DNA of 60,160 bases, counting the filler, from Dimargaris cristalligena (lineage: Eukaryota), in assembly GCA_003614675.1 (NCBI GenBank). It is 3 parts of 3 records of this genome, joined end to end, with 100 filler letters (N's around TTAATTAATTAA, not from the genome) between each part and the next. Parts side by side here need not be neighbours in the genome. Positions count along the whole stretch, not along the records: positions 40,208 to 60,160 come from ML002712.1; 2 more parts are not named here. One strand, given 5' to 3'. A program made the position numbers and the translations under genes. The first letter of the stretch is position 1, and every line of letters starts with the position of its first letter. This document shows, in pieces, positions 7,601 to 59,065 of the stretch. Under the pieces are notes generated by a model, which did no database searches, was not told the origin of the DNA, and worked only from the letters and a program-made list of their open reading frames with translations.

Positions 7601-10600
7601 CATTCTGTAGTAGATTTCGTTGCATTCACAATATGTGAGCATTGGGCAGTTTCCATAATGTATTTCTGTCGACTATAGGGGAGTTTACTGTCTACTGGGA
7701 CATAAGTAGCCCCAACTGACCAAATAGCTAGCATAGCCAGGATTGTATGTGGGTGGTCAGCCACAATGACTGCCACTCGATCTCCCGGATTTATAGGAAG
7801 CTGTTGTAGGTAACTAGCTAATCCCTGGATATTGTGGGCTATTTCTGTGTAAGTCTGTGTTTGGCCAGCAAACTCTGTTGCAATATGGTTGGGATATTGC
7901 TGAACAGCATTGAAAAACATGTCTACAACATTCAAATTAGGGTTTTTTAGGATTGTAGAGTTGACTGGGCCACGTGAGAATTCCTTTAGGATGAATTGGG
8001 CCTCAGCTGGACACACTAGTGGTGCAGTCAGGATTGACTGCCCTAAAGCTAATACTGACTTTATGTAAGAGTAGAAATTATGTAGTAGACGTTCAGCAGT
8101 TTGGTATTTGAAAATATCAGGATTATACCAGAGTTGTAGTTGGGCTACGGGATATTGGTAATTAATAACTAGCTGTAAATCATATGGGAAAAGAGTTTGG
8201 GGTTGTTTGGGATGAACAGCCTGGACACCAGGGGGATAGGAATAGGAAATTGAGGATATTAATAGCACTCCAACTCGGGCTATACTGGTAAATCTAGAAA
8301 GAGGGCGAAGTCCTAATTTAGCACCCAGAACGCCATTAGCTGGGGTAATATGAGTTGCTGATACCTGACATTGTTGGAAAAGAACATTGACTAACTCTAA
8401 AATATTATCTGGTAAGTTACCAGTAAATCGGACTGGGTATGAGGTATTTGTCAAATTGGTAGATGAGGTTAGTGACTTATTAAGGTCATCTATGTGAGCT
8501 TCAAAATTGACTACAAGGTCCTCTTGGCCTGTAAGACGGAGAAGGAAAGCCACAAAAGTAGATAACCAAATAATGCTTTTACAAACTGATTTATGAGTAG
8601 CTAAATCAGATACCATCATATCCAGTTTACTTTCAAGCTTGGTTTCCACCACAGAGCATTGGAAAGCAGTAGTATTTGGTTGGGAATCATCTGTTGGAAG
8701 AGCTAACTTAGTTGTGGCATTGCATAAAAGTGAGCACCAATAATTGGTATCAGTCTTAGAGGGTAGATTCTTGTGGATATAAGGTTTGACTGGCAGTGGG
8801 TCAACAGTATCTAATTTATGGCCTTGAATACCCTGTAAGAATAGTTGAGTAAGATACTTGAAAAACCCACTATCTCCTGCAATTTCATGGACACAGAAAT
8901 TGATAGCTGACTTAATTTCCCCTTCAGATGTTTGAGATACCTGGTAGAGGGTAACTTGAAGAAGGATACCTTGTTGTAGGTTAAGGTGGATTTGCTCTGA
9001 GTTGAAATCCAAGTCAATATTCTCCAGAGGCCCAGGGATTACTTGTTCAATAACTTTGAGTTGCACTTCAGGGAGAATGTGGCAGGCAAGGATACCATTG
9101 TGGGAAGTATAAGAGCAATGCAGTGCCTCAAATTGGGATACTAGTTGATCAACAGCCATTTGGACCTTTGAAATGGAAATTGGTTCTACTAATGTGAGTG
9201 TACAGTGGTGATAGAAGTCTCTTTCAGCATCTGTGAATCTGCTGAGAGACCATATATATTGCTGATAGTTGGTTACAGGAGGGCTTGAAATGTGAGGTAA
9301 AAATGTATACTGGTTATTTATAATGATATGTTCCTGTATTTGGTTAATCTTGCTATTATCCACTAATTTAGTGATAACCAGAGCTAGGGTTTTAAGGTTG
9401 TTGTGGTTAACTAAATCACATATGGCTACCTCAATGCCATATTTCTGATATATACAAAACTTGAGCTTTTCAAACTGGCCTAGGGTGAGCCCTGAGATTG
9501 ACTCATGAATCTGGGTTATTGAAGGATTATTTAGATTTTGGGATAGGTACATCTCATTAACTAAGACAATTAACCACCATTCAGTTTCTGATAGTACCTT
9601 TGGGTATTGAAGGGAAAGGCAAGTGAGGTAGGCCTGGACAAATTTACAGATATTATATCCAGCCTGGTCAGAATAATTAGCCACATGAGGGAAACTCTTG
9701 GTAGATATAAGAGCATTTGGAATAAGCACTTGGGGAACAATGGGTGGAACTACTGTGGCCTGTAGCTTGGCTAATTCTTCCTTAGATGTATAGTCAACTA
9801 CTACTACTAATTTTTCATTGGATAATACCAGAGCCTGGGGATGGATAGCCCCAACTTGAAGGAGTACTTGTTCCAGTATGCCAAGATGCACTTGCTGGCC
9901 TTGGAAATTCACCCGCTGGGATTCAGAGCCCAAAATGTGAATCTGGTTGTCCGAATTATAGTATCCAAGTCCAAGGCCTCCAACCTTTTGAGGCAGACTA
10001 AAATTACAAGTATTGGTAAATACTAGGTATCCAAGAACCCCAGGAGGGCAGGGATGGCCCTGGTAATCTAAAACTACTAATGGAATTCCCCCTAAAGAAG
10101 AGTCTGCAGTAGGAAAAGTAAAAGTTGCTAGTTGACTACTAGTTACAGAGCAGAACCCATCAAATACAGATCCATTATAAACTAGGTAGAGGCAGGATGT
10201 ATTAATTTGAGGGCTGATACTAGATGTCAATAGTTTGGCTAAATTGACTAGTAATAGCTGGTCATTGTGTTGGGGTTCTTGTGTGAGCAAATTTGATGAT
10301 GTGGCATAGCAGTTTACTGGATTGGCATTAGGTAGAGTATACTCCCCTGCTGGCTTGATAGTCACATTATATAGTAGACATGAGAGAATAAGCCAGCTAA
10401 CCTCTGGGCTTCCAATGTCTAATAATGGATCAAAGGAACACTCATGTCTACTATTGAAATATGACTTGGCTTGAATAACAGCATGTGTGATTTGAGTACA
10501 GGTAATTGCAGTTATAGTTGGACCAGTTAAGCTCCAGTCAGAAATAAATTGTAGGCTGATATTAGGGTTGTTATACTGTGAATTGTAAGGTTGAATAGGT

Positions 10601-13600
10601 TCTAAATTAGTGCTAGGGCTATTGGTATTCCAGGATGGTATCTTAATTATATTGGTATTATGTGGGAGGTATGCCAAGTAAGTATTTGAAAAGAAAGCTG
10701 GGAGCCACACAGTCTGGGGTTCAATAGTCTCTAAAGATGTGTTAATTTGTTTCAGAGATCTAGTGTATGGGTGGATTGTTAACAGGACATCTAGTTTGAT
10801 GGCAGCTACTAAGCAGACAGAAAGCTGACTAATATCATTAACAAAGGCTAATATAGTAAGAGGGCAAGCTATTGTGGAATTAGCAGTGGAATACACAAGG
10901 GAATCAACTAGGTGGTTGAGTTGTCCAACTGATAGTACATGTTCATCAGACTGGAGGACAGGGTGGCCTGGATGCTTATTAGTAATACATTCCCAAATTT
11001 GATATAGTGGAAGAGAAGCCAAGGTAGATGTTGGATTGCAGATAGTTTGCCTGGGATTCATAGTTGGTGGATAAACTGCTGGGATAGTAAGTGTGAGCTG
11101 ATCAATAGTTGTTTGAGGATCACATATAAGTATTTGCTCAAGAATAACTTGGACCATATCCACTAGTTGGGCTATTGAGGTCTCTGAATATACAGCAGTA
11201 CTGTAAGATACCCTAACTTGGATAGATGAGGGCTGGTCTACAAAATTGATAGCCAGTGGATACTGTGTAAGCTCATGAATATATATATCTGATAGGGTTA
11301 AGTCAGAAAATTGGTTAGAAGTAAGGTCAGGAAAGTTTTCAAAGCCTAGGAGTGTATGGAATAGGGGTCCTGACTGGGCTAACCCATTCCATTGGATTAT
11401 ATCAGTGAGTTGAGAGTGCTCAAAAGGAATCATATTCACTTGGTCCTTATGAAGAGACTGTAGCCATATCCTAATATGTGATTTATCTAGGTGAACTTGG
11501 CATGGCACTGTATTGGTACAAGGTCCAATCACTTGGTCCATAGCTAGGATATTCAAATTACGACCTGATAGAATCACACCAAAAGTCACATCATCTTGGC
11601 TGAGTAGACGGCCTAAGACTAAGGCATAAGCAGCCCGGAATAGGGTTGCTATTGATATACCTAGGGTTTGAGTTGTTTGGAGTAGTTGGGCTTTGGAAAT
11701 ATTGAGTGGTGTTGAATATGATGCATGACCTGGTGAACCAATATAATCTGGGTACAGTAAGGGGGCTGGTGTAGCTTTAGCATTGTGTAGATAGTCAGTC
11801 CAAAATGCCTGAGCTAATGTGGGATCTGATTGGCATATATATCTAACAACTGCTGTAAAGCTGGTAGGGGGTGGGGATACAGCCAATTTGGGATTGTGGT
11901 AGGCTACCATCCACTGCTGGAGGAGTAGGGGCAATGACCAGCCATCCATTAATGAGTGGTGGATAGTAATAATAATATCATAAACCTGGCTATCAGCAGT
12001 GGGGAACACAAAATTGCGGACCATATGTTCTTGGAGGGTGAATCCCTGCTGTCGATTCTCAATAAAAAATGCTTCAAGGGAATCAAGAGGCTGAACAGCA
12101 ATAGTCCAGGAAGTGGGTAAAGAGGATAGCACCACTTGGAGGAACCCCTGGGATAGAGTACTGGGTGATTCAATGAATACTGTGCGCAGGGGAGAGTGCT
12201 GGTTGGCTACAGAAGCCCAGGCCTGAATCAGTTGATCACAGTCAAGTTGGCCAGTTAGCTTCATGGCCATTTGGACAAGGTACATTGATGGGTCTGAAGA
12301 TAAGTTCATGAGAAGGCCGCCCTGGACTGCAATACAGGGAAATATATCTTCAACCTGGGCGAGGGGAATGCCTCTTTGGTGTATTTGGGCCAAGACAGTC
12401 TGGAACCCAGTGTCAGAGAGAGATAAGTGTGGGAAGTCATACTTGGTAAGCAAAGGCTCAGAAATTATATTTCCAGACTGTACACCCAGGCTAGTAAGTT
12501 CACCCAAATTCTGGTGCCATCTGGCCATAATCCTAGAAATAATATCCTGGTGGTATACCCGGGGGTTATACTCTGTAATTAACCGGAGAGAGTCACCAAC
12601 TATTGCAGACATGGGGTTAAGATCAAAAATAATGTAATCCTGAGGTGAAAAATCATGCAGCCCAAAGGAATCAGACCATTCAATGGAAAGAGGATCACTA
12701 CCCTGGTGAGTACTCGAGTTACTAAACTGGCCAAAGTAGTTGAATTGGACATCCATTTTTGAAGATGTCTTGGCCATTAATTTATGTTTCTCATCAGCTT
12801 GGACACCTGGCATATATTTGATTATTGAGTAGGGAAAGCCTTTACCGGGGATTTTCTGCAAGGCCTCCTTAGTATATTGTAATAGTTCTAAGAATGATTG
12901 ACCTGATTGGATCTGGAGTACTAATGGATAGAGGGAAGTAAACCAACCTACAGTGCGTGTAATATTTTGATCAGCAGCCCAAGGTTCCCGTCCATGGCCC
13001 TCCATACAAAAGGATATCTGATCAATCCCAATGGTAGTAGAAAAGGCCTGGGCAAATGTGGCCAGTAGTAAATCTTGAGGGGTAACTCGCCATTGGGGAG
13101 CTAATTGGAAAAACAAAATACTGGTAGACTTTGAATCAAAATCCAAAGACACAGAGAGGCGGGCTACAGGGTAATCCTCAATACTGATCTCTGGTGGAGG
13201 TAGTAGAGAGTAGATATCGGGGATTGGGTGGTTGGGATCCATCTGTGTAGGCCAAATGTCTGCGGAGAGAGTACTAGAATAATCAGCCAGTTGGGTAGCC
13301 CAGGTTTGAAAAGACATTGTCTTTGGTGGAAGGGGTTTACCAAGCAATAGTGAATTTAAATCCTCAATGAGTATCCGCCAGGAAACCAAGTCCACCAGAA
13401 TATGGTGAATAGTGAAGAAGAGTTGGGTATTGAGTGGTTCAGCTGGGTTGTGGATAAGTGCCGTAGCGACGACTGGGCCAGTAGTAAGGTTGAGGCTTGA
13501 TTGGATCTGTAAAATAAAGGCTGAATAGTCATCAGGGTCCACAGTTTTCTCTAGTACCAGAAGGTCAGCACTTGTAGCCACCTCCGTAGGAATTGTTTGA

Positions 13601-16380: not shown

Positions 16381-19300
16381 GGCTGATTAAGGGAATACGA
16401 TAAATCGGCTTTTTAATTGGTACTCGTACTGAGGTTGGACAGGGTGCGTATGGATTTAGCCGTTTTGGAATACTGGTAAAAATGAGGGGTTTGATTAGTT
16501 TGATTAACTATGCCCCGACGGTAGAAGATGTTCGTGGTTTTTATACTGAAGGTGCTAATTATTAGACCGTGGTGGTGATAAAAATGACATCTGATCAGAC
16601 CCATTAGTCAATAAAGGTCGCTTGAGTATTGTCTATAGGTTTCCATTGACGGATGTATATAACCGGTTTTTAAGGTATGCGGGCCAGGGAACCTGTTTTG
16701 TCCGGTTTTATTTGCATACGAGAAACAGGCGCGGTATTTTTTTTTTTCAACTATCAATCACGCTATTTCGCCCCATATCTAATAGAAACGCGTATTACAT
16801 CCAAGGCAATACGCAAATACTTACAACTATTAATATCATAGGCAGTTTATCCCCGAACCGACTCAATAAACCCCGCCTTACTTATAACCGGTCATTTCGT
16901 GTTTTTATCGCACACATGACAATTACGTATCAACTGGATCCGCCTCAATATCTATATTTTTCTCAGTGTTCAAAAGCATACCCCATATGGTCCACATGCA
17001 GCACTATATACCCGATTATGAACTCACCCAAATGAAACATTACGCTTTTGCCGAACGCCTTGGTATTTTATTTTTTTCATTTTTCATTATATAGCGGATT
17101 AATCTTCCGTGAAATAATGTGTATACTAAACTTACCTATTGACGAGGGGCTCTCGTAGAGATTGGCCATGTGGGCTCCATCTAGTAGTTAACCTACTATC
17201 TATTTGATATGATATGATCCGTAATATTACGATTTCCCTCGGATATTACTAAATCGATAATTACAAGGATATAAGTAAAGATTACCCAATCTAATTATCA
17301 TGATTAGACCATCAAGAACAGCGTCTTGGCACTAATCCTGCTTCTGTAGTGCCACATTATAATTTTTTTTCTCTGTTTCACATTGCTTTACGTATATTCA
17401 AGATTTTTGATGTGAGGGTATTTAGACAGGAAGTATTTTTGCTTTCTCAGTCGTGCGCATTATTGGATTTTTTAATACAAGGCTATCCATGCATATATTT
17501 TCTTCAATTGCCGATAGCAGTAATTTATGCACGCAGTGTAGAGAATATTCAGTAATGCCGCTGAAAAAGCCGATATAGCCTTCTGCATACGACCCGTTGG
17601 TAACGAATACCAAGCCGACCCTCACCACAACGTAATGCAATGTTAATCTGACTGTGTCGGCGGTCGTATGGTACACAACGTAATGTACTTCCTCTACGCA
17701 TGGGAAATAATCATGGGGCTTTCAGCACCCGTGTTGGTATCGAGATTGGGTTAAACCCTGCTTCCGCCGAATAGTGCTGCCTTGCCATAGCTACTTGAGG
17801 TCACAATGCCCCTACTCCACCAGATCCCCAAGTGCGCTCCAGATGGTGGATTCTTCTTTCGAAATACATATGCAGCTAATAGACGCCTCTTTTCCTATAC
17901 AATAGATGCCTAATTATTCAATTAGCCCGACTTATCACCGACCTATTTCACTAAGGGTTCCGTCCGGTCTTTCTGAGCAACAATAGCCGAGGGTTTCTAT
18001 CTGTCCACCTGGGCTGTATTCCTTTGAGGTCCTGGGCGGACATATCTTCTTTTCAGCCAGTTCAGCTTCGCCAGTTGCTTTGTCGATCAGTACTGGATGC
18101 CATCTATGCTTGTCAGCGTGGCCGCCTCTGGGATACTCTATTCTAATGGGAGCTACTTTAATAATATATCGGATCTGAAAGTTGGCTTTATAGTTCAAAT
18201 TATATCGAGGGGATTAGATCTCCTGAATATACAGCACTCTGATTTATATTTACCTGGAGTCGTCAATACATAGGTATCTAACACATAGATTTAAATCGGT
18301 AACAAGTGTTGAAAAACATGTCCCGACGGGGCTTTGATTCTATCCTGTTTCCACCAATTACGTTAGTTTATTTAGTCAATTTTTGACCACTCGTTTTAAC
18401 CACTTATATTTTGCCCTACTGATTATACTGTTCAATAAAACTAACCACCTAGAGGTACCCACATTGTCCTCTAACTGTTTTCTCCCTTTACTACCAGTTT
18501 TATTACTTCATCTTTGAATTCCAACAACCGGGTCTTAACAATACTACAGGGCATAAGTTATTTATGGTATATATAAGATAAAACTACTTCAATCAACGCC
18601 AACACGAAAAAAGCATGGTTTGGCTGGTTTTCGCTAAATTAGTCACCGCCAAGAAGTATCCACTGCTGGCATTCTTGATAAACTAGCTCATTATCCAAAG
18701 GATTTCTACCATTCGGTTGATTTATTCCATAGCAGAGCCTCAACACCACCTTTCGGTTCGTTGATTTTATTAAATATATATTGCTGGGCTTTATTTTATC
18801 GATATCAGTGTTATTTCACCAAGGGAACCTGCAATTAATTGTAACAAGCCCACTATTATATTGTAACGTTTATAAAAGCCTTATTAGTATACCAAATAAT
18901 ATGTATCGAATAGAACAGAAAGGGAATCTCCCAGATCCATGGAGGGGAGCGGGGGGCGAGGTATAAGTACCCCGCCAGCCCTAGGCCAAGTACTATAGTT
19001 ATACTCTGGGTTATTCCTATTGGCCGATATAGTGTATTCCCTATATGGAAGGGTCTGCCACTTGATAACCCAGTGCCTGCTGAGGATGGTCAACATGACC
19101 GTAATAATATAATGAATGATACCATAGATTCACACACCTACTGGTAGAACTTCTCTTCTGATGACATCTAGATTACTGCCAATATATCTTGGAATAATCA
19201 TATTCCTTGCTCCCTTTGCATTACTGGTTTTGACATTTTGGGGGGACTTACATATAAGGGATATCAAAAGGGAGAAAGGCGACTTTTATGGTTTTCTGAC

Positions 19301-20050: not shown

Positions 20051-20150
20051 NNNNNNNNNNNNNNNNNNNNNNNNNNNNNNNNNNNNNNNNNNNNTTAATT
20101 AATTAANNNNNNNNNNNNNNNNNNNNNNNNNNNNNNNNNNNNNNNNNNNN
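20051..20150. other. Artificial contig linker (N44-TTAATTAATTAA-N44)
   Basis: N runs flank a six-frame stop linker. An identical linker lies at 40108-40207. Confidence 0.99.
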
Positions 20151-20282
20151 AAAACTTTATACTGTTGATTTTATTAATATTTTCATTTGAGTGACAAACC
20201 AGTTCGCCTGGAGAAGCCACCCTGCCCTTTTGATATATTTTTGTTGTTCATTTTAGTGGCCTGACACCACCACTCTGTGACA
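20151..20282. mobile_element. Probable LTR terminus of a second retroelement inserted into pol
   Basis: RT homology stops abruptly after ..AHLPWAA. The adjoining AT-richer sequence begins TGTCACAG on the minus strand (plus strand ..CTGTGACA ending at 20282), which is a typical LTR terminus. It is truncated by the contig end. Confidence 0.55.
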
Positions 20283-21826
20283 GCGGCCCAGGGAAGATGT
20301 GCAGAGATGGCGTTGACTCCACCAGTCAGTCGCTGTATTTCCTTTACAGTCCTAGGCATCGGTAACTGCTGGAGGTCTGCAATACGGTGGTCTGGAATGG
20401 TCCAGGTGTTCCCTTGTGTCCATCGGTAGCCAAGGATTTCCATGTTAGAGGTACCAGCAAATTCGCTCTTAGACATATTTATGGTAAGGCCCCAGGTGGC
20501 TAGCCCTCTTATAAGTATGCCAATATCTTGGATGTGGTTATTGATATTGCCGCTAGTACTCTTTAGGTAGATATTATCAATGTACCCTAGGAGGCGGCCA
20601 TGAAGACTGGGGATATCATTGAATACATGGAGGAGGAGGGCATGTGCAATAGCGGGGCTTTGGCTGTTACCCTGTACTAAGCGGGTTGCTCGTACTCGGC
20701 CATTGGGTCCTCCATCGAAAGTCCAAAAATCTCGAACTTCTGGGGCAAGCCTGATCTGGGTAAAGTAAGAAGCCAGGTCTATACTAGTGATAATCTTAGC
20801 ATCGTTGATAAATGCACGGACTTCATGGAGTCTAGGGAGCTGCATCCCAAGTGAGTGCATATTAATAGTGCTCCCTTGGCTATCATCAAGAATGACTTGC
20901 CGGGCATCCGTATTTGGCTTGGGTAAGCTGTATACTGGAAGGTTAGCATGGGCAAACCCTGGCTCATCAACTCCATATTGGAGGCGAGTTTTGATGTACT
21001 TCGCCATGAATTCCCGATCGGCCTGACTCCGGGGGGCCTGGGGTATGTACAGAAGTTTTGCATCATGCCGTAGTGGTGGTACCACTGGGGTGAGTAAGCA
21101 GGGTGGTGGACAACTTGGTGGGTATTCTCGGAGGGCTGATGCTCCAGCCATTAGTTCATCCAGTAGCCGTTTCTGAGTAATTTGGCATGTCAATTGTTCC
21201 ACTAGACGGGACTGTACACTTTGACGAGTAGGTAAAGGGTACTGGTCATTTGCCTTCCTGAACTCTTGGTCGGCTATAGGGTCAATCCGCCTGAAGGTTT
21301 CTGCCGGTAGGCCCCTTAGCTCCAGGGTTTCTCGCTGGGTGATTCTGGGCTGCTCTGGGTGGATCACTGGGGGGCAGGCTGGTGGAGCGGCCATTAGCTC
21401 AGGTGAGAGGCGAAGGTCAAGATCTAGGCTATCTAAGTCCTGGCGGCCAATCAGGGCATCAATTTCGGTGTTAGCCTCAATCACCGTAAATTTAATCCAT
21501 CGCTTTCTGGGGGACTCTGATGTGGCAAATCGTGCTCGGGTAGTGCCCAGGGTTGGGGCATAGTGAGGCCCTCCAAAGGCTCGCAAGTGGGGTCTGAGCT
21601 GCTGGTCAATCTTGAGATGTAAGCGGGTGGCAGTATCTCGGGTGATTACACTGGTGGCTGCTCCTTGATCGGCTGCTGCTTTAATCGGAACTCCACCTAA
21701 GGTGGCATTATGAAGTAATCTCCAGTGGGGGGTTATGTCTTCGGTGGTAGGGGGGTCAATACTAGGTTTATTGGAGGTGATAGCAGCTAGTATGAGGGGA
21801 GTCCTTACCACCTCTAGGCTTTTCCC
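20283..21826 (-). CDS. pol: Ty3/gypsy-type pol (aspartic protease + reverse transcriptase), -1 frame relative to gag, 3'-truncated
   Basis: Protease motifs AAADQGAATSVI and DALIGRQDL; RT motifs LPRLHEV, SIDLASYFTQI, RLVQGNSQSPA, YIDN, INMSKSEF, ILGY and PRTVKEIQRLTG. Protease directly followed by RT is the gypsy order. No RNase H or integrase is present. Confidence 0.88.
21759..21826 (-). promoter_or_regulatory. -1 programmed ribosomal frameshift signal (G GGA AAA + H-type pseudoknot)
   Basis: Minus strand reads ccG GGA AAA gcc TAG. Stem 1 is GAGGTGGTA/TATCACCTC and stem 2 is ATACTAG/CTAGTAT. Confidence 0.8.
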
Positions 21827-22722
21827 GGCTTATTGTTGACTAACTGCTGGAGGCGTCCAATTTCTGCCTTCAACTCAGCTGTCTCCTTAGCCTGGCGATC
21901 CTTTCGACGCCGAGTTTTACCACGATTGGTATTATTGGCAGTAGGCACTCCACCCTGGATAGCCGCGAGTACTGCAGCCACTAGGGACTCGGTGGATGGT
22001 AACCCAGTATCTCTGTTTCCCTTAGATAATTGATCGCGGAGTACCTGGGCAGACATACTATAACTGGATACAGTTTGAGTGGTGGCCTGGTTGGCTTGAC
22101 CATGGCCCGGGGCCGTTCGGAGGGCAGCTTGACGTGCCTGACTGGCCAATACTGCCTTAGCAATGGCCGTAAAACGTTTGGTCATATCACCAGCAGTATA
22201 ATTGGTAAATTCCCAGAGGTCATTAGGGGCCTGTACCAGGTGGGAATGAAACTCGGCTAATAGGGCCTTAGTAACCTGCGTACACCAATGACTAGTGCCT
22301 CCTAGTTGCCAGGCTGCGTCGGTAGCAATGGTGCAGGCCACATGGATGTTCTTCCCCTTGAAGAGGGTTCCTGCGTGGAGTGCGGCATCATAGTGTTCTG
22401 CCCATTGGGAGGCTGGGTAGGTGGTCACCATGAAAGGCTCAAAGTTCTCTTGGGTATCTTTGCCGGCCTTGATAATTAAATCGCGGATGTCATCATGGAG
22501 TAGGGCGATTGTCAGGCGGAATTGGGCACCTTCACTCATTTGAGGATAGTAGTCGTGAACGGTGGCAAGGAGAGACTGTTTCCAGGATTCCCAGGTAGGG
22601 CCGGGTGGTTTGCCAGTGAAGGGCTTGATATTCTTGAGGAGAGTATCAAGGGCGCCAGAGGGAAGACCATGTTGAGGGATAAGAGGGACGTCAGCTGGCT
22701 TGTTCTGGGAGGGCGGATCCAT
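21814..22722 (-). CDS. gag: Retrotransposon gag-like protein (302 aa)
   Basis: The ORF lies immediately upstream of pol, with IKPFTGK..WESW near the N-terminus and a basic C-terminus (KTRRRKDRQ). The call is mainly positional. Confidence 0.75.
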   Translation of the reverse strand: MDPPSQNKPADVPLIPQHGLPSGALDTLLKNIKPFTGKPPGPTWESWKQSLLATVHDYYPQMSEGAQFRLTIALLHDDIRDLIIKAGKDTQENFEPFMVTTYPASQWAEHYDAALHAGTLFKGKNIHVACTIATDAAWQLGGTSHWCTQVTKALLAEFHSHLVQAPNDLWEFTNYTAGDMTKRFTAIAKAVLASQARQAALRTAPGHGQANQATTQTVSSYSMSAQVLRDQLSKGNRDTGLPSTESLVAAVLAAIQGGVPTANNTNRGKTRRRKDRQAKETAELKAEIGRLQQLVNNKPGKA

Positions 22723-22741
22723 AGTTTAGAAAATATAATAG

Positions 22742-27654: not shown

Positions 27655-29343
27655 ATGGCCTTCCACAGTCTAGTTACCGCTGGTTTTCTTGGACTCTACG
27701 CCTGTACTTTTCCCCAGAATGGGCAAGTAGAAGCAGCACTGCCGCACACCCATTATGGGGTGGCGCCGGAGGCCTTGGCGAGTGTGGCTAATAATTGGGA
27801 AGTTCCCGCCCGGCATTACCGACGGGGTCTCACATACAAGCACTATTTCGACGACAGCGATGACGAGACCTCATTTCCGGTAAGTTAGTTGGCAAGATAT
27901 GGTGGAACTTACTCGATTAGTTTTTATGAAGACGGCTGGGTGAAAAATAAAATTGCCCACTGGTGCGGGCCCTGCACTCGTTCTCCCTGGAGGGATGGCG
28001 TGACTACAGCTTTTGAGGGGGGATTAAAGAGGAGCCATTAACATTATAACAGGGCCAGACTCAGTTCACTGGGGAAACCCCACTAACCAATCATCACCAT
28101 TCCTCTATATCTTTACACTACTCTTTGCATTATAATTATAATTATAATTATTACGTTTCTACAGAGTTCTTCAGCAGCGCTTGCTCCCCCCATCCCTGCC
28201 GCAGTGGTAGTTTCCCATGAATGGGTTAGTGGCGGCCCATTCCCCACCACGGTATACCCCGACTACGATGAAGACTTCTACCATCTTTTCCGAATGCAAA
28301 CCCAGGCTATATTAACCAAAAACATCATCCGCCAGTTGGAAATGGCGCGAGGCATTAACTTGATTAGAGAGGTCGCAAATAACATCGCGGTTAGCCAGGA
28401 AGGGGAAGAGCGATTAATGGAGCAGCAGTTGAAGGAGTATGACGCTAAAAATTCGGTTAAGTTTTTGGTCTACCAACAGCTGGGACCTGAAGACCGTCGC
28501 CGGATTTTTCCAGCGTTGGACTTAATTGCCCGCGATTCCTGGAACGGTATCTTAACCGGCTGGTTGAATGATCTCATTGTTCACTCGGACGGCCTGCGAA
28601 CCTACACCAAGGCCGCGGTGGAGCGAGCCTATCCGGGCTACTTACTACCACCGTTGGTAGGATCTCCTGCCCCGGGCCTATCCGATGACATACAACCCCT
28701 GGTGGAGCCAAACTACCTGGTGGGTCCGCAATTTTCCCGGACTTGGCTTACTTCCGTCATCGCCGCCTTTATCGAAGAAGATAAAAGTCATGCCCTATAT
28801 GATTTCCTGAGTCACCTGAACCAGTTGTTCGCTATGTCAGCTGATCGGATGATTGCGGCTACCGAGCGTGGTAGTCCGTCCGTGGTTAGGGACGGGGGCC
28901 TAATCACTCATCTTACGTGGGTGGCCTGGGTGTTTATTGCTGAGCGATACTATGAGCCTGCATCAGCATCCGCATCATCAGCAGCATCTTCCACGCAATC
29001 GAACGGGGGGCTGCCCGTCGCGCATCAAGGGCCCATGGCCAACCTGTACCGTGACATGGTGGGCCATGAGGGGTTTATCCTGTCCGAACTGGCCATTTGT
29101 GTCGCGGATAAAGAAATGACCAACGCCGGTGCGTATATAAGCCACCTTCTCGACCAGCAGCCGAACCCCCCGGCCGGTAGGGGTAGAGTGAGGAGACATG
29201 CCGTACCATCTTGTCCGGAACTTTTCCAAATTAGCGCTGAAGTCGTCCTGAAACGCCCAATGGGGTCCTTGGCGATTATGGTGGACTCTCGGTTTGCCGA
29301 GTCTCTAGCTGAAGGGCAGTTGGTCTATACTACAGATGTCTAG
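27655..29343 (+). CDS. Predicted secreted protein of unknown function, about 467 aa, 2 exons (27655-27879, 28165-29343)
   Basis: Signal-peptide-like N-terminus MAFHSLVTAGFLGLYACTF..VEA. A phase-0 intron GTAAGT..CTACAG joins the two ORFs in frame. No known domain was recognised. Confidence 0.75.
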
Positions 29344-38039: not shown

Positions 38040-40107
38040 ATGCAACGTTACCTGCTCAAGAGGGCGATTGACGCCCACCCCAAGCGCCCCGCTCGTCTGG
38101 CCCCGCTACTCCTTTCGGTAAGTGGGCCACCTCCTTTTACTCGCCCCCCCAACGGTAACTCGGCTTAATATAGCCGAACCGTCTATCTTACTCATATATC
38201 GGAGTCCTATATCTTCTCATTATGCATTAATGAATCCAATACATATACTCAACCTTACTTATATATATAATCATACCATACGATCACTATATGCCCACTA
38301 CTAGTCGCCTTGCCGCTACAGCTCCACGTCTAAGGAACTCCCATTGGCCTCCGAGTGGGAAGCCATGGCCCAGAAGGAGATCAAAGGCAAGGACCCCGCC
38401 GACACCCTGACCTGGCGAACCGCTGAGGTAGGTTTTTATTTCCGTATGCAATACATGCCCATACACTTGGTCGTCGATAACGCTCTCAGACGTATGCCGC
38501 CTTTGATGAGAATTACTAATATCCCTCCTAGTCAAGGCTATAGACCGACAAATACAATCTCACTCTAAATACTCTACCACGGCTATTTCCCCGCTAATCA
38601 AACATTATTGTATGCTCTATGCACAATCCTCCTCTTCTTTCGCCCACCTAAATTGTGCATCCTGTCCTGCGGACTTTCGTGTAGGGAATCAATGTCAAAC
38701 CCGTCTATTCCAAGCGCGATACCGCCCAGATTGAGGAAGAGTTTCCCGGCAAGTTTCCGTTCACCCGGGGTCCGTACGCTACCATGTACACCGCTCGCCC
38801 CTGGACTATTCGACAGGTAAGGGCTAGCTAAATTACTTACTGAAACTAAACTGAACCAACGGAGTCGTAAGAACTCAGTCGTAGTGGCATACACCCCACC
38901 CGATACTGCATGACCTTCCCATTTTTTTTAAAAGAAAAAACCCCCCCTGATGTACCTACTATTATTGTCACCCGTATCTATGAAACCTCCCGAATCCCCA
39001 GTACGCCGGGTTCAGTACGGTGGAGGAAAGCAATCGCTTTTACCGCAAGAATTTGGCCGCCGGACAACAGGGCTTGAGCGTGGCCTTTGATCTGGCCACG
39101 CACCGTGGTTATGACTCCGACCATCCACGCGTGGTGGGTGACGTGGGTATGGCTGGTGTGGCCATTGACAGTGTCGAAGACATGAAGATTCTTTTCGACG
39201 GCATCCCCCTCAAGAAAATGTCCGTCTCCATGACCATGAACGGTGCAGTACTCCCCGTCCTGGCCAACTACATCGTCGCCGGCGAGGAACAAGGCGCTAA
39301 ACTCGAGGAGCTGTCGGGTACCATCCAGAATGACATTCTCAAGGAATTTATGGTGCGTAACACCTTCATCTACCCGCCTAAACACTCCATGAAAATCATC
39401 GGTGATATCTTCTCCTTCACGGCCTCCCACATGCCCAAATACAACTCCATTTCGATCTCGGGCTATCACATGCAGGAAGCCGGCGCCGATAACGTGCTCG
39501 AAATGGCCTTCACACTGGCCGACGGTTTGGAGTATATCCGAACAGGCATCCGGGCGGGTATGACCGTGGACCAATTCGCCCCCCGACTCTCGTTCTTCTG
39601 GGCCATTGGTATGAATTTCTACATGGAAATTGCCAAGATGCGGGCCGCCCGCCGGCTCTGGGCCCATCTGGTCAAGGAGAAATTCCAGCCCAAGAACACC
39701 AAGTCCTTGCTGCTGCGCACCCACTGTCAAACGTCCGGCTGGTCACTCACCGAACAGGACCCCTACAACAACGTGATCCGTACTACCATTGAGGCCATGG
39801 CTGCCACCCTGGGCGGTACCCAGTCCTTGCACACCAACGCATTCGACGAGGCCATTGGTCTGCCTACTGAATTCAGCGCCCGTATTGCCCGCAACACTCA
39901 GCTTATCCTTCAGGAAGAGGCAATGATTCCCAAAGTGGCTGACCCGTGGGGCGGTTCCTATATGATGGAGTCGCTCACCAACCAAATGTACGACGCTGCA
40001 CGGGCCCTAGTGGAGGAAGTCGAGTCGATGGGTGGTATGGCCAAGGCGGTGGACTCGGGAATGCCCAAACTCAAGATTGAGAGAGTCTCATCCACCTTGC
40101 AAATCGG
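38040..40107 (+). CDS. MMUT: Mitochondrial methylmalonyl-CoA mutase (adenosylcobalamin-dependent), 3'-truncated by contig end
   Basis: Spliced exons give a presequence MQRYLLKRA.., then [47 protein letters not shown]. Further motifs: [46 protein letters not shown] and [14 protein letters not shown]. Confidence 0.97.
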
Positions 40108-40207
40108 NNNNNNNNNNNNNNNNNNNNNNNNNNNNNNNNNNNNNNNNNNNNTTAATTAATTAANNNNNNNNNNNNNNNNNNNNNNNNNNNNNNNNNNNNN
40201 NNNNNNN
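40108..40207. other. Artificial contig linker (N44-TTAATTAATTAA-N44)
   Basis: Same structure as 20051-20150. Confidence 0.99.
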
Positions 40208-51865: not shown

Positions 51866-54442
51866 TAGATAAGGTCGCGAATTCCCACTTTCTCTACACT
51901 AATAATCTACTTATAACGACTATATATCCCCCTTTTTTATATTTTTGTGAATTGACCATTCAAGGGATAGTTGGGGGGGCCTCCTCGACCATAATATTTT
52001 TCTCACTCCCCTATCACCACCCCGTGTTTTTAGTATTTACACATCTGATTATATTCGTATAGGGGATATTTTTGCTTATACCGGTGGCGTTAATCATGCC
52101 TTCCCCATAACTCTACTTGTTATCCTGCTTCCTCGGGGTTGTCCAGTCGTCATTGAGTTAACCTACTGATGGTTGTACCTTTCTATCCGCCTAAACAACA
52201 GTATAAATACCCCATTCTAGCGAGATTGCCTCCATCTTGGTGTAAATTCATTGTAAATGATTAGGGGGACTTTTAAGGTCGCTGATGAGGAATCTGGCGT
52301 TCATCTACCGCGCTTTTCATAGGTATTTCGATTGATTTTTTTTCCACTTAAAGAGGGAGTGGGTCAGTTATCGGCCTGTTTATAACAATTAAGCAGGCGG
52401 GTTGTAGAAGCCACTTGATTACGTAAATGGCAAAAGAACTGACCTCCTTGACCTTGATCCGCCAGACGGAGTACGGCATATGCGGCACTATGCGAGTAGT
52501 TTATCTAGTCCTTCTTTATCGGTCAATCGTCCGGATTACCTCATTAAAATTATATATCGCCGGTTAATACGGTTCATGGACACTACTTGGTGCTAATGTA
52601 TAGGGGGGGAGATATAGACCAATAATGCTGTTGTTGCAAATGTGTGTTGGGCGAAAAAAACAGGGGCGGAGGGGTGGGGTCAGAGCCCTACTACTCGATG
52701 TTCAGCATTCGGAAGTCTTGACATAAAAACGTTACCATTTTCACCTACGACTTTGGGGTGTATTATACGCGCCACATCCGGGAAGCCGTGTGTCTTTTAG
52801 GGATGGGAATGGGTATATTAGCCCCTGTAGGTCCATATGGCATTGGTCAACGCTGGCCTGTAGTCATTGCATTCCAACGGTACGAAGAGGTAATTTAACG
52901 GCAACCATTATGGATTTATTTTAGTATTTTCTAGCTGGGTTCAATAGCTAACCCCCAATAAGCTACCCAAATCCACCTTAATTTTAAATGATTGGGCTTG
53001 GTAGGTTGTGTGTCTAAGGAGGTTACTATAGTTTTGTTTTGTGGATAAAATGTAGTTATGTATTGGTCCAAATATGGCCCGATCATTATCCAGTACAATT
53101 GCGTTAGTTCTGTTTTTCTTACAGAAAGGGATTCCCCTCCCCCCTCATCTAAATATGTGTTGTCAGTCACTCATTTTTGGCCGAATAGGAATTATATTAT
53201 TGGGGGATGGATTCATTGTGGGTGGTTTCCAGTTCTATAAGGTGTCTCGCACTCCCCTTACAGGGTCAGATGGTTGTCGCTATATCCCTACCGTTGCGTC
53301 GTTGTACAGGTGACGCGTTGAGTGAGTCGTTGGAAAGTTCCGTTCCAAACCCTCCATTGCAAACGCCACCGGTGTATTTAATGTGCGGAGGTACGCCATT
53401 TTAGGTATCCATGGGCAAAGCAGTTCCGCGGCAGTGTCTAGGGCGTTGGTCAACTACTGTACAGACCCTGGTCTTGTGAACACTGTTTTTCTTGGCTCTC
53501 ACTCCCAATACTTTTTTTGTACCACAATGTCGACCAACGAGGCTGGCTGGTTAATCATATACTAATGTGTGAATACTTACATTGCTGAAGCCTAGCAGGG
53601 TTGCACTAGACTGTCTGAGAGGTCTTTGTGTAGTATTTGCTTCCAGTTCGCAGAGTATAGTCTTATGGTCTAGACTGGTCTCGAAAATCGAGGCACTCAA
53701 CTGTAGTCTCATTGATAACCTGTATCTTCTCGTTGTGGTCAAAACCCATTCAACTTTATAACTTGGGCTTTGTAATACCAAGATTCCAGCTGACGTCGAA
53801 GATTGACTCAACCTAATATATGTTTTATAATCAGAGATAAGGCGAAAGAAATGAAGATATAGGGTGTGGCCGAGAATGGCCGTGATGTTGAAGGGGGGGT
53901 AGGAGCCTAACAGTTCACAATAATGCCAAATCTATTTAAAAGACGCTGTTTATTATGAACATGCCGAAGCTAGGTGATGCTCTGCCACTTTATGTTATAT
54001 CTAAGGAGATTCGGCTCCATTGGCTTTAACTACATAAGGGGAGGGAGGGAGACGCGGATATAATAGGCCACTGGTGTCTCCATAGTGTTACGGGTGCAAC
54101 TTACGGGCTAGTCCAGGGGTGAACTAAACCATATGAATTGGAGTATATTATTAACGTGGATGTGCAATGCTGGTGCATTAGTAGAAAAAGGCCGAGTCCC
54201 ACTCTGGTTTTCCAGGGCAATGGGCCCATTGCCTCCATGCCCCACCATCATCCAGACGCAGGTCGATGCCCCCGCGGATATATATATATATAAAGCCTTG
54301 TCCGGCCCACTTTTTCTAATCAACCACCATGCCATTTTCGCCAGTTGTCTTACCACCGGCACTTGCTCGAAAGTATTGTTTCAAATTTCTCGCCCATCAC
54401 TGTCGAACGCTGCGTTGTCCCGCTACCCTATCCCTCCGTACA

Positions 54443-55802
54443 ATGTGGATTTCTGCTCGCTTTGCTGCCTCCCTGACCTTGGCCGTAATCATGGGTTGCC
54501 CAGTCCATGGCGCCTCCCTACCGTCCGAGAACCCCTTAGCTGGTCTGCCCTCGGAAATGATCGCCACGATGTTTGATATTCTTCCCTACAGTGGCATTCG
54601 CAACTTTCAATTGACTAGCCGTGTAAGCAACAGGCTAGTGATGAACTTCGAGAGTGACCTGACGGATCCGGTAAGTGATATCCTGGCGCCCCATGTTTCG
54701 GTCGGGCAACTGGGATGGCGGGGTACCGCAGCTCGGTAAATATACCGATGATCTATTTACTACTTACAAGCCAGCGGGGCCCTCGTAACACCAATTTACT
54801 ACCTATCCTATTAGCTGTTAAAAGTTCACCCTTACCCTCTTGCTAACTGTTTCAGTGTTCTCCCCTTCCCCCCGCGTTGTCTCGATTGCACCAGATTCCC
54901 CTGGATAGAATTTCCTCATCCTCGAAAAATCGCTTCTCCTTCATGATGCTAACGGAAATGAGGTAGACCGTGATACTCGCCTAAATGACATGTTGTATCT
55001 AGTGGATAATGAAATTTGGCTGGCCATTGTCCACCGTATCTATACCCAACTATCGGCCCATGGCTATTCTACCAATATCACTGGTACCACCATCCCAGGG
55101 TGGGCGGCGGGAGGAGTGTTACACCCGTATTTGGAGGAGTTTAAACTTCTGCAAAAATCCCTGGTGGACGTCGAATATTTGCGTCTTAGTCGAACCCAGA
55201 AGGCCCAATTGTTTCCCCTCGCCATGTTGTGGCACCGCAAGGGAAATTACCCTCGCGCCAGCAGTTTTCTACGCAATTTGGCGGCCCAGACCGATGCGCG
55301 GGATTTTACCACCCTGAATATCAGTGTCCCGGGGGAAAAAATGGAGGCCTTGTTGACTACCCTTGGCACCTCCAATTATAATATTTGTAGACTAGTTCAG
55401 TATAAATACTGGAACCGGCTCGTCCGCCGTTTGATCATCCTAGCCATCGCGGATGGCTGTATTGACTTTGTGCAGGAACTGATGCACGATCTAGAGGAGC
55501 GGTATATGTTCGAGATGGACGATATGGCCACATTCATCATCGCCGTGATGGTGGAGATGGAGGTGCCGGCCGCGGTGTATACTCCGCTGACCCTGTATGC
55601 ATCCGTCCCGTCGAAATACAAGGACAGTAACCAAGCTGTGCTGACGGACCTGTTGCGCGCGGAACTGACCAAACAAGAAAGAATTTTGGATGTCCATTTC
55701 TTCCCCGGCCATAGAATGACTATCCAGGCGGATGTGTCAGAGCTGACGATGGAAGAGTTTACCGCCCTACCCAGATACCAACCTACGGAGCCCATCGCAT
55801 AG
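54443..55802 (+). CDS. Predicted secreted protein with F-box-like motif, about 373 aa, 2 exons (54443-54670, ~54909-55802)
   Basis: Signal peptide MWISARFAASLTLAVIMGCPVHG, then LAGLPSEMIATMFDILPYSGIRNFQLTSRVSNRLV. Donor GTAAGT at 54671; an in-frame acceptor TAG ends at 54908 (acceptor choice uncertain). Confidence 0.7.
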
Positions 55803-56523
55803 GGAGATGGTCTCTCCCTGGTGGTCGCTTGTTTTTACAGTTGAATCGAAACACTGTAAGCTGAGTGGGTCTTGCTTTATGCGTGCGTTCGATTTTCTAG
55901 TATTTAACATACATATTTAAATGACATGCACATATTACCATTGATTCTGTACTGACAGTTTATTTAGTTAACCGGTCTGTAGTAATTGATCGTCAGATAT
56001 GGGCGGCATGTTAGCTTGCACACCAGATCCACCTCCATTAACCAGTCTGCTAGGACCAACCCCCCTGACTACTTGTAGGGACCATATTGTAGATTTATCA
56101 ATAAAGAAAATGTGGAGAGAGCAAATGCATGTTAGTAAACACGGGCATAGATATATACTGCGATATTGGTATGTATTAGGTAGTGAAATGAAGGATATGT
56201 TAAGAAAAAGGCATAGATTTGTTAGATTAGAGGGGGCGGGCAGATGGTGGCATCGTGGCGAACACAGGTGGAACGGCAAATCCCATGCCGGGTAAAATGA
56301 GGCGTTAGGCAAGTTCTGGCCCCAACTGACATACACATTTCGTTAGGAGGGTAGGCCTATAGTCGTATTGTAATTAGATGATGGTTCAAGGGGAATACAA
56401 AGTAGGTACTGTGGAGTCAAAGGCAAAATAAGGGAGGGTGGGAGTAATAACCGGTCTGATCAGACCATCGAAAGTACAAAAATAACATAGGTGGGCGGTT
56501 GGGGTCATTTCAGAGCACCTGAT

Positions 56524-57711
56524 CTAGCGGTGGGGCGTCCGCGAAGGAATGCTACGTTCTATGAGAGTTAACCGGCGCTCAAAATCACTTGCGGCCAGCA
56601 ATGCCTCGTTAACGGGTGCAATGTGGTGGCCATTGGTAGGCTGTACCGGATCAGGAGTGGGCTGATCGAAAGGGTTCGGAGGAGTTGGTGAAATACCATC
56701 CCCTGCAAGCATGCAAGACCGCTGTTGAACCAACATCAATTGGAGTATATTGGCCTGCTGCTGTTGAATAAATCGGTTCTGTTGCAATAGGCTGTCCATT
56801 TCTTTTCGCAAGGCCCGCTGCTGCCGGAGAAACTTCTTTAGCCAGCGGGGACGTTTGACGGGCGGCGCTGACCAGATATCACCAGCGGGAGTGGCACAGT
56901 TGGAAGCAGTCGTGGTGGTGGAGGGGGAATCATCCGGCGTCGAGGGTGCTCGTCGCTTAGATGGCCGCGTGTTTAGATTGTTGGAGGAGGTGGTAGCGGC
57001 GGTAGTTGTGGTGGGTGGCTGGGTACCGGGCCGCTGGGTCGAAGGGGGAATAGATGATCGTGGCCGTGGGGCCGGGTTGTTGGACTTTACCGGTTTAGGG
57101 AGCGACGTGGGGACCGCCTTATCGAGAGTCGGGCTAGGTGTATTTTCCACTGTGGCATGTCTCACACTGTCCCCGGACACACTTCCCTCACTATCCTCAG
57201 GCTCATCCGCGGAGGTCTCGGCCTCATCCTCGGAGCTCGATTCGCCCGATTCGTTGATCTTGGCCTGGGCGGGAACTGGCGTGGGTCGGGCGGCTCCCGT
57301 AAGGGCAGGCGGGGGTGGGCTCCCGATAGGGGAGGTGGAGATCGCCCCCTGGGTTGCCAGTTTTTCGGGAGTAAATGGGTTACGGTGCTTGACGGAGTGG
57401 CCCCCGAAAATCGCGTGCATCTTGTCGTAGTAGGGCCAGGTGGGTCGGGTTCCGTCGCCGCTTTTAAGGAAATACCGGTTGTAGGCATTGACCAGCCGAT
57501 TGTACCGCTTACGGACTTCTTCTGGGGTCACTCGGAGTTGAAGATCGGCTATGGCATCGATGAAAAATGGGGTGCGGTTACTCTTGGGAAAACGACCAAG
57601 GTTTTTCTTGATGTATTCGAGGAGACCGAGTACCTCGTCTTGACTCAGTAGCTGCTCATCCTTACACGGCCGACCAAGCTTTTTGGGTGTGACTGACGAG
57701 GGCGTCGACAT
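56524..57711 (-). CDS. Myb/SANT-like (trihelix-type) DNA-binding protein with C-terminal coiled coil
   Basis: TPEEVRKRYNRLVNAYNR..WPYYDKMHAIFG, an AT-hook-like KKLGRPCK, a disordered Pro/Ser/Thr middle and a Gln-rich coiled coil. Confidence 0.65.
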   Translation of the reverse strand: MSTPSSVTPKKLGRPCKDEQLLSQDEVLGLLEYIKKNLGRFPKSNRTPFFIDAIADLQLRVTPEEVRKRYNRLVNAYNRYFLKSGDGTRPTWPYYDKMHAIFGGHSVKHRNPFTPEKLATQGAISTSPIGSPPPPALTGAARPTPVPAQAKINESGESSSEDEAETSADEPEDSEGSVSGDSVRHATVENTPSPTLDKAVPTSLPKPVKSNNPAPRPRSSIPPSTQRPGTQPPTTTTAATTSSNNLNTRPSKRRAPSTPDDSPSTTTTASNCATPAGDIWSAPPVKRPRWLKKFLRQQRALRKEMDSLLQQNRFIQQQQANILQLMLVQQRSCMLAGDGISPTPPNPFDQPTPDPVQPTNGHHIAPVNEALLAASDFERRLTLIERSIPSRTPHR

Positions 57712-59065
57712 GGTAGGCGAAAAAAAGAGAGATAATGAGCCGGCGACAGTTGCCAGGACAAGATTGGTTAAGGAGGAGGGAGCGATGAATTAAGTAAGTT
57801 AGTAGATGTTTAGTATTCAAAAGGAATAATAGGTTTCAAAAAAAATAAATAGGGAATCAATTCAATCAATATGGTACAGTCGCTGAAAATAATGCAAAAT
57901 TGCCGGTGAAGTAGGGTAATAAGAATGTCAGTGGGAAAGGTAAGTAAAATTACTGTTTAATGTATAAAAAAATACTAAGCCAGTTTAAGGCTGTGTGTAG
58001 TCACCAGGTTGGTATTGTGGTATTCCCGAAAAACAACCCTTCACTATTAGTCCTATCATCCAGTGGATGGTATGTTCGATGCCGAAGACCGGCTAATGTT
58101 GTTGATGGTAAAGAACACCTTGGTGGCTCAAACTAGAGGGTACAATATAAGCAAAGCGGCTCGACATTGATGTCTGAAACAGTCCAGGCCCCAACAACTA
58201 CGCTGCTTGAGTGGCATATTGGCTACTTTCTATAGGGAAGATAATCTAAGCATTGACGAACCTACACCCGTCAATTCCAGTTGAGGCCCTGCGTAAATCT
58301 ACAGTATATGGCCAGGGTTAAGTTGGGCTACAAAGCGGGGGATCCATTTGATGCGACTGCTATTCCTTGTTAAAATAGGTATCTCATCAGAAATACCAAT
58401 TGTATATAATATTCACAAATCGTATACAGTGGTGTTGGATCTTCCCAATATATACAAAGCCTGTCTGGAACCCCAAATAATCATTGATGGTTGTGTACTG
58501 CTGCATAGTGCAGGTTTAAGGAAAGCTTATTCCTATCAATTCCTTTATCGGGTCTACCAAAACCCAGATCATTACTATATATATCCCATTTAAACCGAAA
58601 CGAGCACTAACACTGAACTCACAGCCTAGAGCTAGCCACTATCTCTGAAACCATGAGAGAAGACGGTATTTTCTAAGCTATGAGATCATAAGGTGTTGAA
58701 GAAGAATGGTCGAAACGGGAGAAATCATTGTCAATGACCATTCAGCGCCTGTTACAATTATTATATCTTAGTCTTGCAATTCGGGTATAAAAACCCGCCT
58801 ATTTTACTCCCTAGTTCGAGGAGCAATCCGCTGAGAAAACGAACTAGTCATATATTACTGATTATACCGCACTTATTTCTAAATAAATATTCTTTTGTAA
58901 AAAACTTATCTATTAAACTAAATACTATTAATCTTATCACTTTAACAAGGCCGTCGAAGAGCGAATATAAAGTAGCCATGGTCCCCGAATTCGAAATATA
59001 TTCATTCCTTTAAAAACGAAACAATTTACCAAAGTTTTTTAAAGTTATTTTATTAATATAACACC

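Follow-up and report, generated by a model that had tools for sequence, protein, structure and literature searches.

A divergent candidate member of a large family of putative secreted F-box effectors in the mycoparasitic fungus Dimargaris cristalligena

We analysed a gene at positions 54443-55802 (the 54443 gene) of a 60,160-nucleotide stretch of DNA (the window) from the fungus Dimargaris cristalligena (assembly GCA_003614675.1). The gene has two exons. Exon 1 encodes a signal-peptide-like N-terminus followed by an F-box-like motif, and exon 2 encodes a mostly helical domain. The same predicted two-exon plan is shown at about 73 loci of the genome, broken and F-box-less copies included. We think that the gene probably belongs, as a divergent member, to a large family of D. 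cristalligena proteins that are secreted as F-box effectors and engage the Skp1-Cullin1-F-box (SCF) ubiquitin ligase of the host. On a wider proposal, that 70 or more secreted F-box effectors bring a substrate-binding domain of an undescribed family into host hyphae and there reprogramme host SCF ligases, our judgement is evenly balanced.

Skp1 is cytosolic or nuclear. We propose delivery into the cytoplasm of another cell because the secretory pathway offers no partner to an F-box that follows a cleavable signal. Translation would begin at 54443 and the protein would enter that pathway, be released at the haustorium and reach the cytoplasm of the host mould. There the F-box would join host Skp1-Cullin1, and the fast-diverging exon-2 domain would pick a host protein, a different one for each paralogue, to be ubiquitinated and degraded. 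A first-pass annotation of the window had suggested an effector of a parasitic fungus. The lifestyle is as it supposed: in the available text of PMC9866270, Dimargaritales parasitise other fungi by means of an appressorium and feed through haustoria.

Results

A gene family with a shared two-exon plan

We found many relatives of the 54443 gene in the genome. Searches with two Pfam F-box models gave 67 and 62 places, which merged into 83. We examined 81 of these, leaving out the second exon of one cytosolic F-box gene and a locus, C1858, that was examined in the exon-2-first test described below. Many of the places were short frames with a Met and a hydrophobic stretch at the start and a splice donor at the end. 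A phase-0 donor lay 123-138 nt after the start of the F-box in 51 of the 81. The offset was 138 nt in 26 of the 51 and 135 nt, as in the 54443 gene, in 13.

Donor-bearing places usually began with a signal-peptide-like segment. By our own hydropathy and cleavage heuristic (threshold 1.8), such a start was present at 39 of the 51 donor-bearing places, compared with 2 of the other 30 (33 and 1, respectively, at a threshold of 2.0). Both of the positive places that lacked the donor are family members by exon 2. The Fisher p value for this enrichment, 3.5e-10, overstates independence because family copies share ancestry. A genome-wide count of genes combining a signal peptide with an F-box had been proposed in the first-pass annotation, and its outcome greatly strengthens the case. 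The eight best Pfam F-box matches in the genome were long frames that lacked the conserved intron and, at the 1.8 threshold, a signal-peptide-like start as well. L032, L082 and L105, three related F-box-like genes with long frames, have an altered start and no signal peptide, and are apparently a separate, cytosolic family.

The second exon was also shared. An exon-2 frame of at least 240 codons was present in 38 of the 51 donor-bearing loci. Most of the other 13 look broken, and at least one of them is cut by the end of the locus. Copies broken by stops or frameshifts (L017, L020, L111, L123, L130 and L140) give a birth-and-death pattern. At 24 of the 32 donor-bearing loci outside the training set, an exon-2 profile matched downstream at 10 bits or more. 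We also ran the test in reverse. Of 29 loci found by exon-2 similarity, 17 had an F-box-like motif upstream; among these 17, one was also on a Pfam list, two scored below 10 bits and one had no in-frame signal peptide. Three of the 29 loci had less than 200 nt of upstream sequence, and seven further contigs without loci were outside the test.

Adding these loci (51 + 3 + 17 + 1 + the 54443 gene) gives 73 with an F-box, a lower bound, plus 5 without. The list is incomplete: 20 stretches sampled blind, 200 kb or 0.65% of the genome, contained one new complete member, and reversed sequences contained none. The sample is too small to estimate family size. One complete member, L207 (G000:C560:1-10000), was missed by both Pfam searches. 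It has a signal peptide, an F-box and a donor at 126 nt, and its exon 2 matches the family profile at E 5e-7. Several paralogues exceed the Pfam F-box gathering thresholds, and one is automatically labelled "F-box domain-containing protein" in UniRef. The shared plan is a signal-peptide-like start, a variable linker, an F-box, a phase-0 intron and a helical domain of 300-400 residues.

The exon-1 motif resembles an F-box

ATG 54443 opens the residues MWISARFAASLTLAVIMGCPVHG, with candidate cleavage sites after residue 18 or 23. An 8-residue linker follows, and then LAGLPSEMIATMFDILPYSGIRNFQLTSRVSNRLV (54536-54640). We compared this motif with a profile of 26 paralogues, all of which match both Pfam F-box models at E ≤ 0.1 and from which the 54443 gene was excluded. 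The motif ranked first among 1109 six-frame open reading frames of the window (E 7e-4), and its score of 18.3 bits was reached by none of 5000 shuffles. On a position-specific scoring matrix (PSSM) of 51 paralogues it scored 25.1, and the best of 3000 shuffles scored 4.0. When left out one at a time, the members themselves scored from -2.3 to 62.5 (median 31.6), and 13 of them fell below the 54443 copy. Judged against the column counts of the 51 paralogues, the copy has the core pattern L-x2-LP-x-E-h-x3-h-h-x2-L ... h-x2-V/T-S-K/R. Against the PDB, the 26-member profile retrieved FBXL3, Dia2, Cdc4, Fbw7 and Skp2 at E 7e-7 to 1e-3, and also Legionella AnkB (5k35; E 0.007). The family profiles and our heuristic support the reading of exon 1 as signal peptide plus F-box, and the sequence agrees with its first-pass description.

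It is very improbable that the motif arose by chance, as an amphipathic-helix pattern in ordinary extracellular proteins that have nothing to do with Skp1. The profiles were seeded from Pfam matches, which favours F-box-like patterns, and the 54443 copy itself is without a Pfam match. However, several paralogues pass the Pfam thresholds, and the search that started from exon 2 recovered the motif without F-box seeding. In addition, the Pro and the Glu of LPxE are each conserved in 49 of 51 paralogues, a figure inflated by the seeding, while the linkers and exon 2 diverge.

A modelled complex with Skp1

Modelling placed the F-box on a fungal Skp1, at its C-terminal half. A complex of the F-box segment with Skp1 of Gamsiella multidivaricata scored 0.62, compared with 0.02 for the best of three controls. 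Runs agreed in at least 92% of contacts, the partner had a predicted local distance difference test (pLDDT) score of at least 79, and the contacts fell on Skp1 residues 93-153. Of 78 solved complexes, 51 reached the mark used here, as did 2 of 108 mismatched pairs. For eukaryotes, 71 of 105 solved pairs reached it, among them 39 of the 65 that had no similar older complex, whereas 2 of 126 unrelated pairs did. The model shows a predicted likeness to solved F-box-Skp1 complexes rather than proof of binding by the 54443 copy.

The genome contains two Skp1 genes, L063 (G000:C77) and L064/L065 (G000:C314). The second has a long insertion or intron within the dimerisation domain. The C-terminal halves of Dimargaritales Skp1 proteins are 69-77% identical to that of Gamsiella and 73-76% identical to each other; those of the five Dikarya Skp1 proteins compared are 85-91% identical to that of Gamsiella. 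Speculatively, the unusual divergence of Dimargaritales Skp1 might, as a side effect, spare the ligases of the parasite itself.

Four of the 69 family linkers (L020, L029, L110 and L180) contain an FFAT-like core with acidic residues before it; a looser pattern raises the number to 7. In 2000 rounds of shuffling, the mean was 0.03 and the maximum 2. The copies share ancestry, and we chose the pattern after the linkers had been seen. VAP/Scs2, at the cytosolic surface of the endoplasmic reticulum (ER), is bound by FFAT motifs. A core of this kind implies a putative cytosolic partner, but not whose cell it is in. The 54443 gene has no FFAT-like core. Neither these motifs nor the Skp1 divergence prove the proposed mechanism.

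The proteins might instead stay in the parasite. Their hydrophobic segments would then be uncleaved membrane anchors, with the F-box in the parasite's own cytosol, and the proteins would serve as organelle-tethered SCF adaptors. This arrangement needs no unexplained transfer into a host cell, the genome has two Skp1 genes, and the FFAT-like motifs of a few linkers would also work in the parasite's cytosol. We nevertheless consider it unlikely. The hydrophobic cores are short. A Lys or Arg usually precedes them, and at their ends are small-residue sites that resemble cleavage sites; these are features that favour cleavage and import into the ER lumen. We also infer that, with their extreme divergence, broken members and recurrent F-box loss, these genes look more like an effector family than like housekeeping adaptors.

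Exon 2 encodes a mostly helical domain

We found that exon 2 of the 54443 gene matches the exon-2 profile of its paralogues (24.2 bits, E 9.5e-7 in the window, 0/1000 shuffles). Because exon 1 and exon 2 each match their own profile, the two exons point to the family independently. The Pro of a hallmark motif (Table 1) is at position 103 in this gene; the family range is 77-133.

The suggestion that exon 2 encodes a novel helical domain is supported in so far as the domain is mostly helical and of no Pfam family. No Pfam family scored above cut-off in the 21 paralogue exon 2s scanned or in that of the 54443 gene, and these scans contained neither a leucine-rich repeat family nor an ankyrin family. 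AlphaFold2 models made with paralogue alignments had a pLDDT of 77.8 and a predicted template modelling (pTM) score of 0.77 for the 54443 gene; for paralogue L031 the values were 90.4 and 0.91. Helices dominate both of these confident models. Of the three short strands, one falls at the hallmark motif and the other two form an element close to the C-terminus, and there is no strand-helix repeat. An Atlas feature search gave ankyrin clusters at 0.88-0.90, with at most 159 of 256 features shared, which is a weak lead.

Relatives of exon 2 were found in D. cristalligena. With exon 2 alone as query, one protein, from D. cristalligena, was found among 1652 candidates; a second protein of its cluster is P0002. 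An exhaustive search of representatives returned the same protein and P0003 only, and we rejected P0003 as an unrelated repeat translation. With the exon-2 alignment as query, two D. cristalligena proteins were found among 8000 candidates scored. We found no relatives outside D. cristalligena in these searches, which are insensitive at 15-20% identity, and other Dimargaritales may hold some.

The properties of exon 2 bear on whether the proteins, once secreted and delivered, would act as decoys, the F-box occupying host Skp1 and blocking host SCF ligases with no substrate recruited. The Skp1 model fits decoys equally well, and exon 2 has no known substrate or surface that would bind one. However, a decoy needs neither a conserved folded domain of 300 residues nor dozens of divergent versions of it. 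Exon 2 is also still open in F-box-less copies, which suggests that it binds targets in its own right. We regard decoys as decidedly unlikely.

Start codon and splicing of the 54443 copy

The spacing of a TATA-like box favours ATG 54443 as the predicted start over an in-frame ATG, at 54329, that lies 38 codons upstream. A TATA match lay 92-239 nt ahead of the signal-peptide ATG in 18 of 39 paralogues, in a count that ignored matches less than 41 nt from the ATG, and 8 of those 18 also had an extra ATG between the TATA and the start. ATG 54443 is favoured because its spacing (156 nt) falls in the range of the paralogues, several of which have intervening ATGs. Our signal-peptide heuristic gave 2.26 from ATG 54443, compared with 0.03 from ATG 54329.

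The 238-nt intron is typical in length for the family, in which predicted introns are 73-379 nt and all acceptors are predictions. The deposited D. cristalligena protein P0002 consists of exon 1 and exon 2 joined across exactly this intron. No source of RNA data was listed for 54300-55900, a result that bears on neither expression nor splicing. In many paralogues a branch-like site lies 44-79 nt before the in-frame acceptor with no intervening AG; in the 54443 gene, CTAAC lies 63 nt before the in-frame TAG. This long spacing is seen in family introns such as those of L011, L030, L042 and L083, and in the window at 27880-28164. We rejected a three-exon model through an acceptor at 54855, because inspection of the sequence gave no GT donor in a fitting phase.

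Points that weigh against our reading

Several results count against the view that the 54443 gene encodes a secreted F-box effector of this family. Some concern the motif. The search with Pfam F-box models suggested by the first-pass annotation failed for this copy: exon 1, three sub-fragments of it and the deposited proteins gave no match to PF00646 or PF12937 at E ≤ 10, and the copy is missing from both genome-wide Pfam lists. A hidden Markov model of the 51 paralogues gave a weaker score (9.8 bits, E 0.051), yet still ranked the motif top in the window. The F-box pattern claimed for the copy holds in its core residues and in its match to the paralogue profile, and breaks down at the hydrophobic position of the third helix, which is Ser here and Leu, Trp or Phe in 29 of 51 paralogues. 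A complex model had been suggested as a check on Skp1 binding. The mark was passed, but the Skp1 was a stand-in fungal protein rather than that of the host, alignments were unused and the calibration of the score lacks host-parasite pairs. The pass may also be memory, because F-box-Skp1 complexes have already been solved.

Other points concern exon 2 and gene structure. Homology is not shown for every exon 2, because 5 of 20 members failed a leave-one-out test of the profile (15 of 20 passed at 10 bits or more). Exon 2 of the 54443 gene is a long branch, with a best identity of 18%. Signal-peptide calls come from our heuristic rather than from SignalP and, for this copy, depend on a start at 54443. 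Both deposited models of the gene start at ATG 54329, which buries the signal peptide. The second deposited copy carries substitutions, one of them within the F-box, and is without 19 residues of exon 2. Finally, an out-of-frame CAG lies 10 nt past CTAAC, a layout found in 2 of 38 intact paralogues.

The family could be real and the 54443 copy decaying or mis-expressed. Splicing to 54855 would give a short product, a start at 54329 would give an unsecreted one, or the F-box might not bind Skp1. The competing acceptor is the main doubt on this copy. It suits such decay, as do the good context of ATG 54329, the missing Pfam match, the 19-residue gap and the short or cut exon 2 of 13 of the 51 donor-bearing loci. 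In contrast, exon 2 of this copy is open over all 297 codons with a confident predicted fold, and its hallmark Pro falls inside the family range. The distance from CTAAC to TAG is within that of many paralogues, and the TATA spacing suits ATG 54443, with an intervening ATG present in 8 of 18 paralogues too. We treat a defective copy as a minor possibility, and prefer a divergent family member.

F-box-less members and a distant relative

A second gene in the window, at 27655, had been proposed as a relative with a different exon 1, and exon shuffling had been suggested. It is not a true neighbour of the 54443 gene, because an N spacer (40108-40207) joins separate contigs. The two genes have no similarity in a pairwise comparison (best BLASTP E 3.8). 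However, the 27655 gene matches the family exon-2 profile at 14.7 bits (0/1000 shuffles) and a larger profile at 19.4 bits, and so it is a relative, although a distant one. Its exon 1 has no F-box signal on the 51-paralogue PSSM, on which 607 of 3000 shuffles score as high. We rejected a decayed F-box in this exon: although its best window has the distance to the donor that is seen in the family (43 codons), shuffles score just as well.

Four other paralogues without an F-box retain family-type signal peptides in exon 1. We placed them on a midpoint-rooted exon-2 tree of 61 rows, made up of the two window genes and the 59 frames retained out of 76 profile hits. C49 groups as sister with the F-box-bearing C620 (100/99), C1496 lies inside a starred, mostly F-box-bearing clade, and C60 and C53 pair within an unstarred (91/82) F-box-bearing group. 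Because F-box-less members nest among F-box-bearing ones and keep family-type signal peptides, repeated loss of the F-box would explain them more simply than exon swapping, and the tree lends no support to shuffling. For the 27655 gene itself, loss and shuffling cannot be told apart; both it and the 54443 gene are long branches of unsure placement.

Features of the window

The features of both genes are listed in Table 1. N spacers at 20051-20150 and 40108-40207 join separate contigs, and adjacency across them is not real. An intronless frame of 3900 codons at 4684-16386 (-) encodes a non-ribosomal peptide synthetase with two adenylation domains, condensation domains and a terminal reductase domain. 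A retroelement-like pair of frames, an unnamed upstream frame and then one with aspartyl protease and reverse transcriptase, runs to the contig end at 20183-22725 (-). A gene for methylmalonyl-CoA mutase, a vitamin B12-dependent enzyme, is cut by the contig end at 38984-40107 (+). At 56524-57789 (-), convergent with the F-box gene, is a Myb/SANT-like (MADF-type) frame below the Pfam cut-off; genes of this type are often transposon-derived.

Table 1. Predicted features of the 54443 gene and its distant relative in the window
Feature	Positions	Strand	Remarks
TATA-like box, TATATAA	54287..54293	+	in (AT)n run; 156 nt before ATG 54443, 42 nt before ATG 54329
Upstream in-frame ATG	54329..54331	+	adds 38 residues unlike a signal peptide; used by deposited models
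Exon 1	54443..54670	+	76 codons; ends 45 codons past F-box start
Signal-peptide-like segment	54443..54511	+	Arg6, hydrophobic core of 12 residues, PVHG end; called by our hydropathy and cleavage heuristic
Divergent F-box-like motif, 35 residues	54536..54640	+	family profile and PSSM; Skp1 model; without Pfam match
Intron, phase 0, GTAAGT...TAG, 238 nt	54671..54908	+	predicted; identical in deposited model P0002
CTAAC branch-like site and out-of-frame CAG 10 nt later	54843..54855	+	competing acceptor at 54855
Exon 2, mostly helical family domain of 297 residues	54909..55802	+	putative substrate-binding part; exon-2 profile, AlphaFold2
Second CTAAC and in-frame GAG	54949..54962	+	possible alternative acceptor; 355 rather than 373 residues
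Hallmark motif Y-x2-L-x3-Q-x3-(L)FP	55176..55217	+	Pro invariant in 57 aligned exon-2 sequences
Distant relative without F-box	27655..29343	+	exon 1 27655-27879, intron 27880-28164, exon 2 28165-29343; other contig

Discussion

The molecular control of a living fungal host by haustorial mycoparasites is barely known, and genome papers on such mycoparasites, as far as their available text goes, discuss proteases, chitinases and peptide synthetases. If our reading is true, the F-box effector family is a concrete, testable mechanism that implies protein transfer across a haustorium between two fungi. The host proteins that are degraded would point to the means by which the mould resists invasion. 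The exon-2 domain, which in one paralogue is modelled at a pLDDT of 90, may be a new scaffold for target binding. The family is hidden in gene catalogues: the 54443 copy is annotated from a start that buries its signal, and many members fall under the Pfam thresholds.

The family is apparently undescribed and, if our reading is true, would be the first of its kind in fungi as far as our searches reach. We found neither a fungal secreted F-box family nor a Dimargaritales F-box in the literature, most subscription papers being beyond the search. The available main texts of PMC9866270, PMC6784888, PMC9391592 and PMC13188720 do not mention the F-box, although their supplements could list F-box domains. 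In its available part, PMC8146833 remarks that roles of the F-box in the pathogenicity of eukaryotes lack support.

The D. cristalligena proteins resemble ordinary cytosolic fungal F-box proteins, such as Cdc4, Dia2 and the top Pfam matches in the genome, in their F-box core pattern and modelled Skp1 site. They differ from those top matches in their conserved intron and signal-peptide-like start. A closer parallel is the SSGP-71 family of the Hessian fly, Mayetiola destructor. In the available text of PMC4617103 and PMC11641797, SSGP-71 is an expanded family with an N-terminal F-box and a variable C-terminal domain; some members lack the F-box, the family is proposed to hijack the host SCF, and one member binds wheat SKP6 in two-hybrid tests. 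The D. cristalligena family shares with it a eukaryotic parasite, a large expansion, the N-terminal F-box with a variable C-terminal domain, and F-box-less members, and likewise has a predicted signal peptide ahead of the F-box. The differences are that D. cristalligena is a fungus on a fungus, whereas the Hessian fly is an insect on a plant, and that the C-terminal domain of the D. cristalligena family is without leucine-rich repeats. We treat SSGP-71 as a parallel rather than as a family to which our genes belong.

Agrobacterium VirF is a bacterial F-box effector. The RipG/GALA F-box effectors of Ralstonia, among them RipG7, are a further precedent (PMC4617103, available part). Like RipG/GALA, AnkB and VirF, the D. 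cristalligena proteins are proposed to bring an F-box to the Skp1 of another organism together with a separate target-binding part. The bacterial effectors are injected by type III or type IV systems and carry leucine-rich or ankyrin repeats; in contrast, the D. cristalligena genes contain a spliceosomal intron and encode a predicted signal peptide of the ER type, with no established route into the host. The same ubiquitin-ligase strategy may have arisen convergently in fungi, an insect and bacteria. By analogy, the D. cristalligena family would work like SSGP-71 and RipG7 but, without leucine-rich repeats, belongs to neither.
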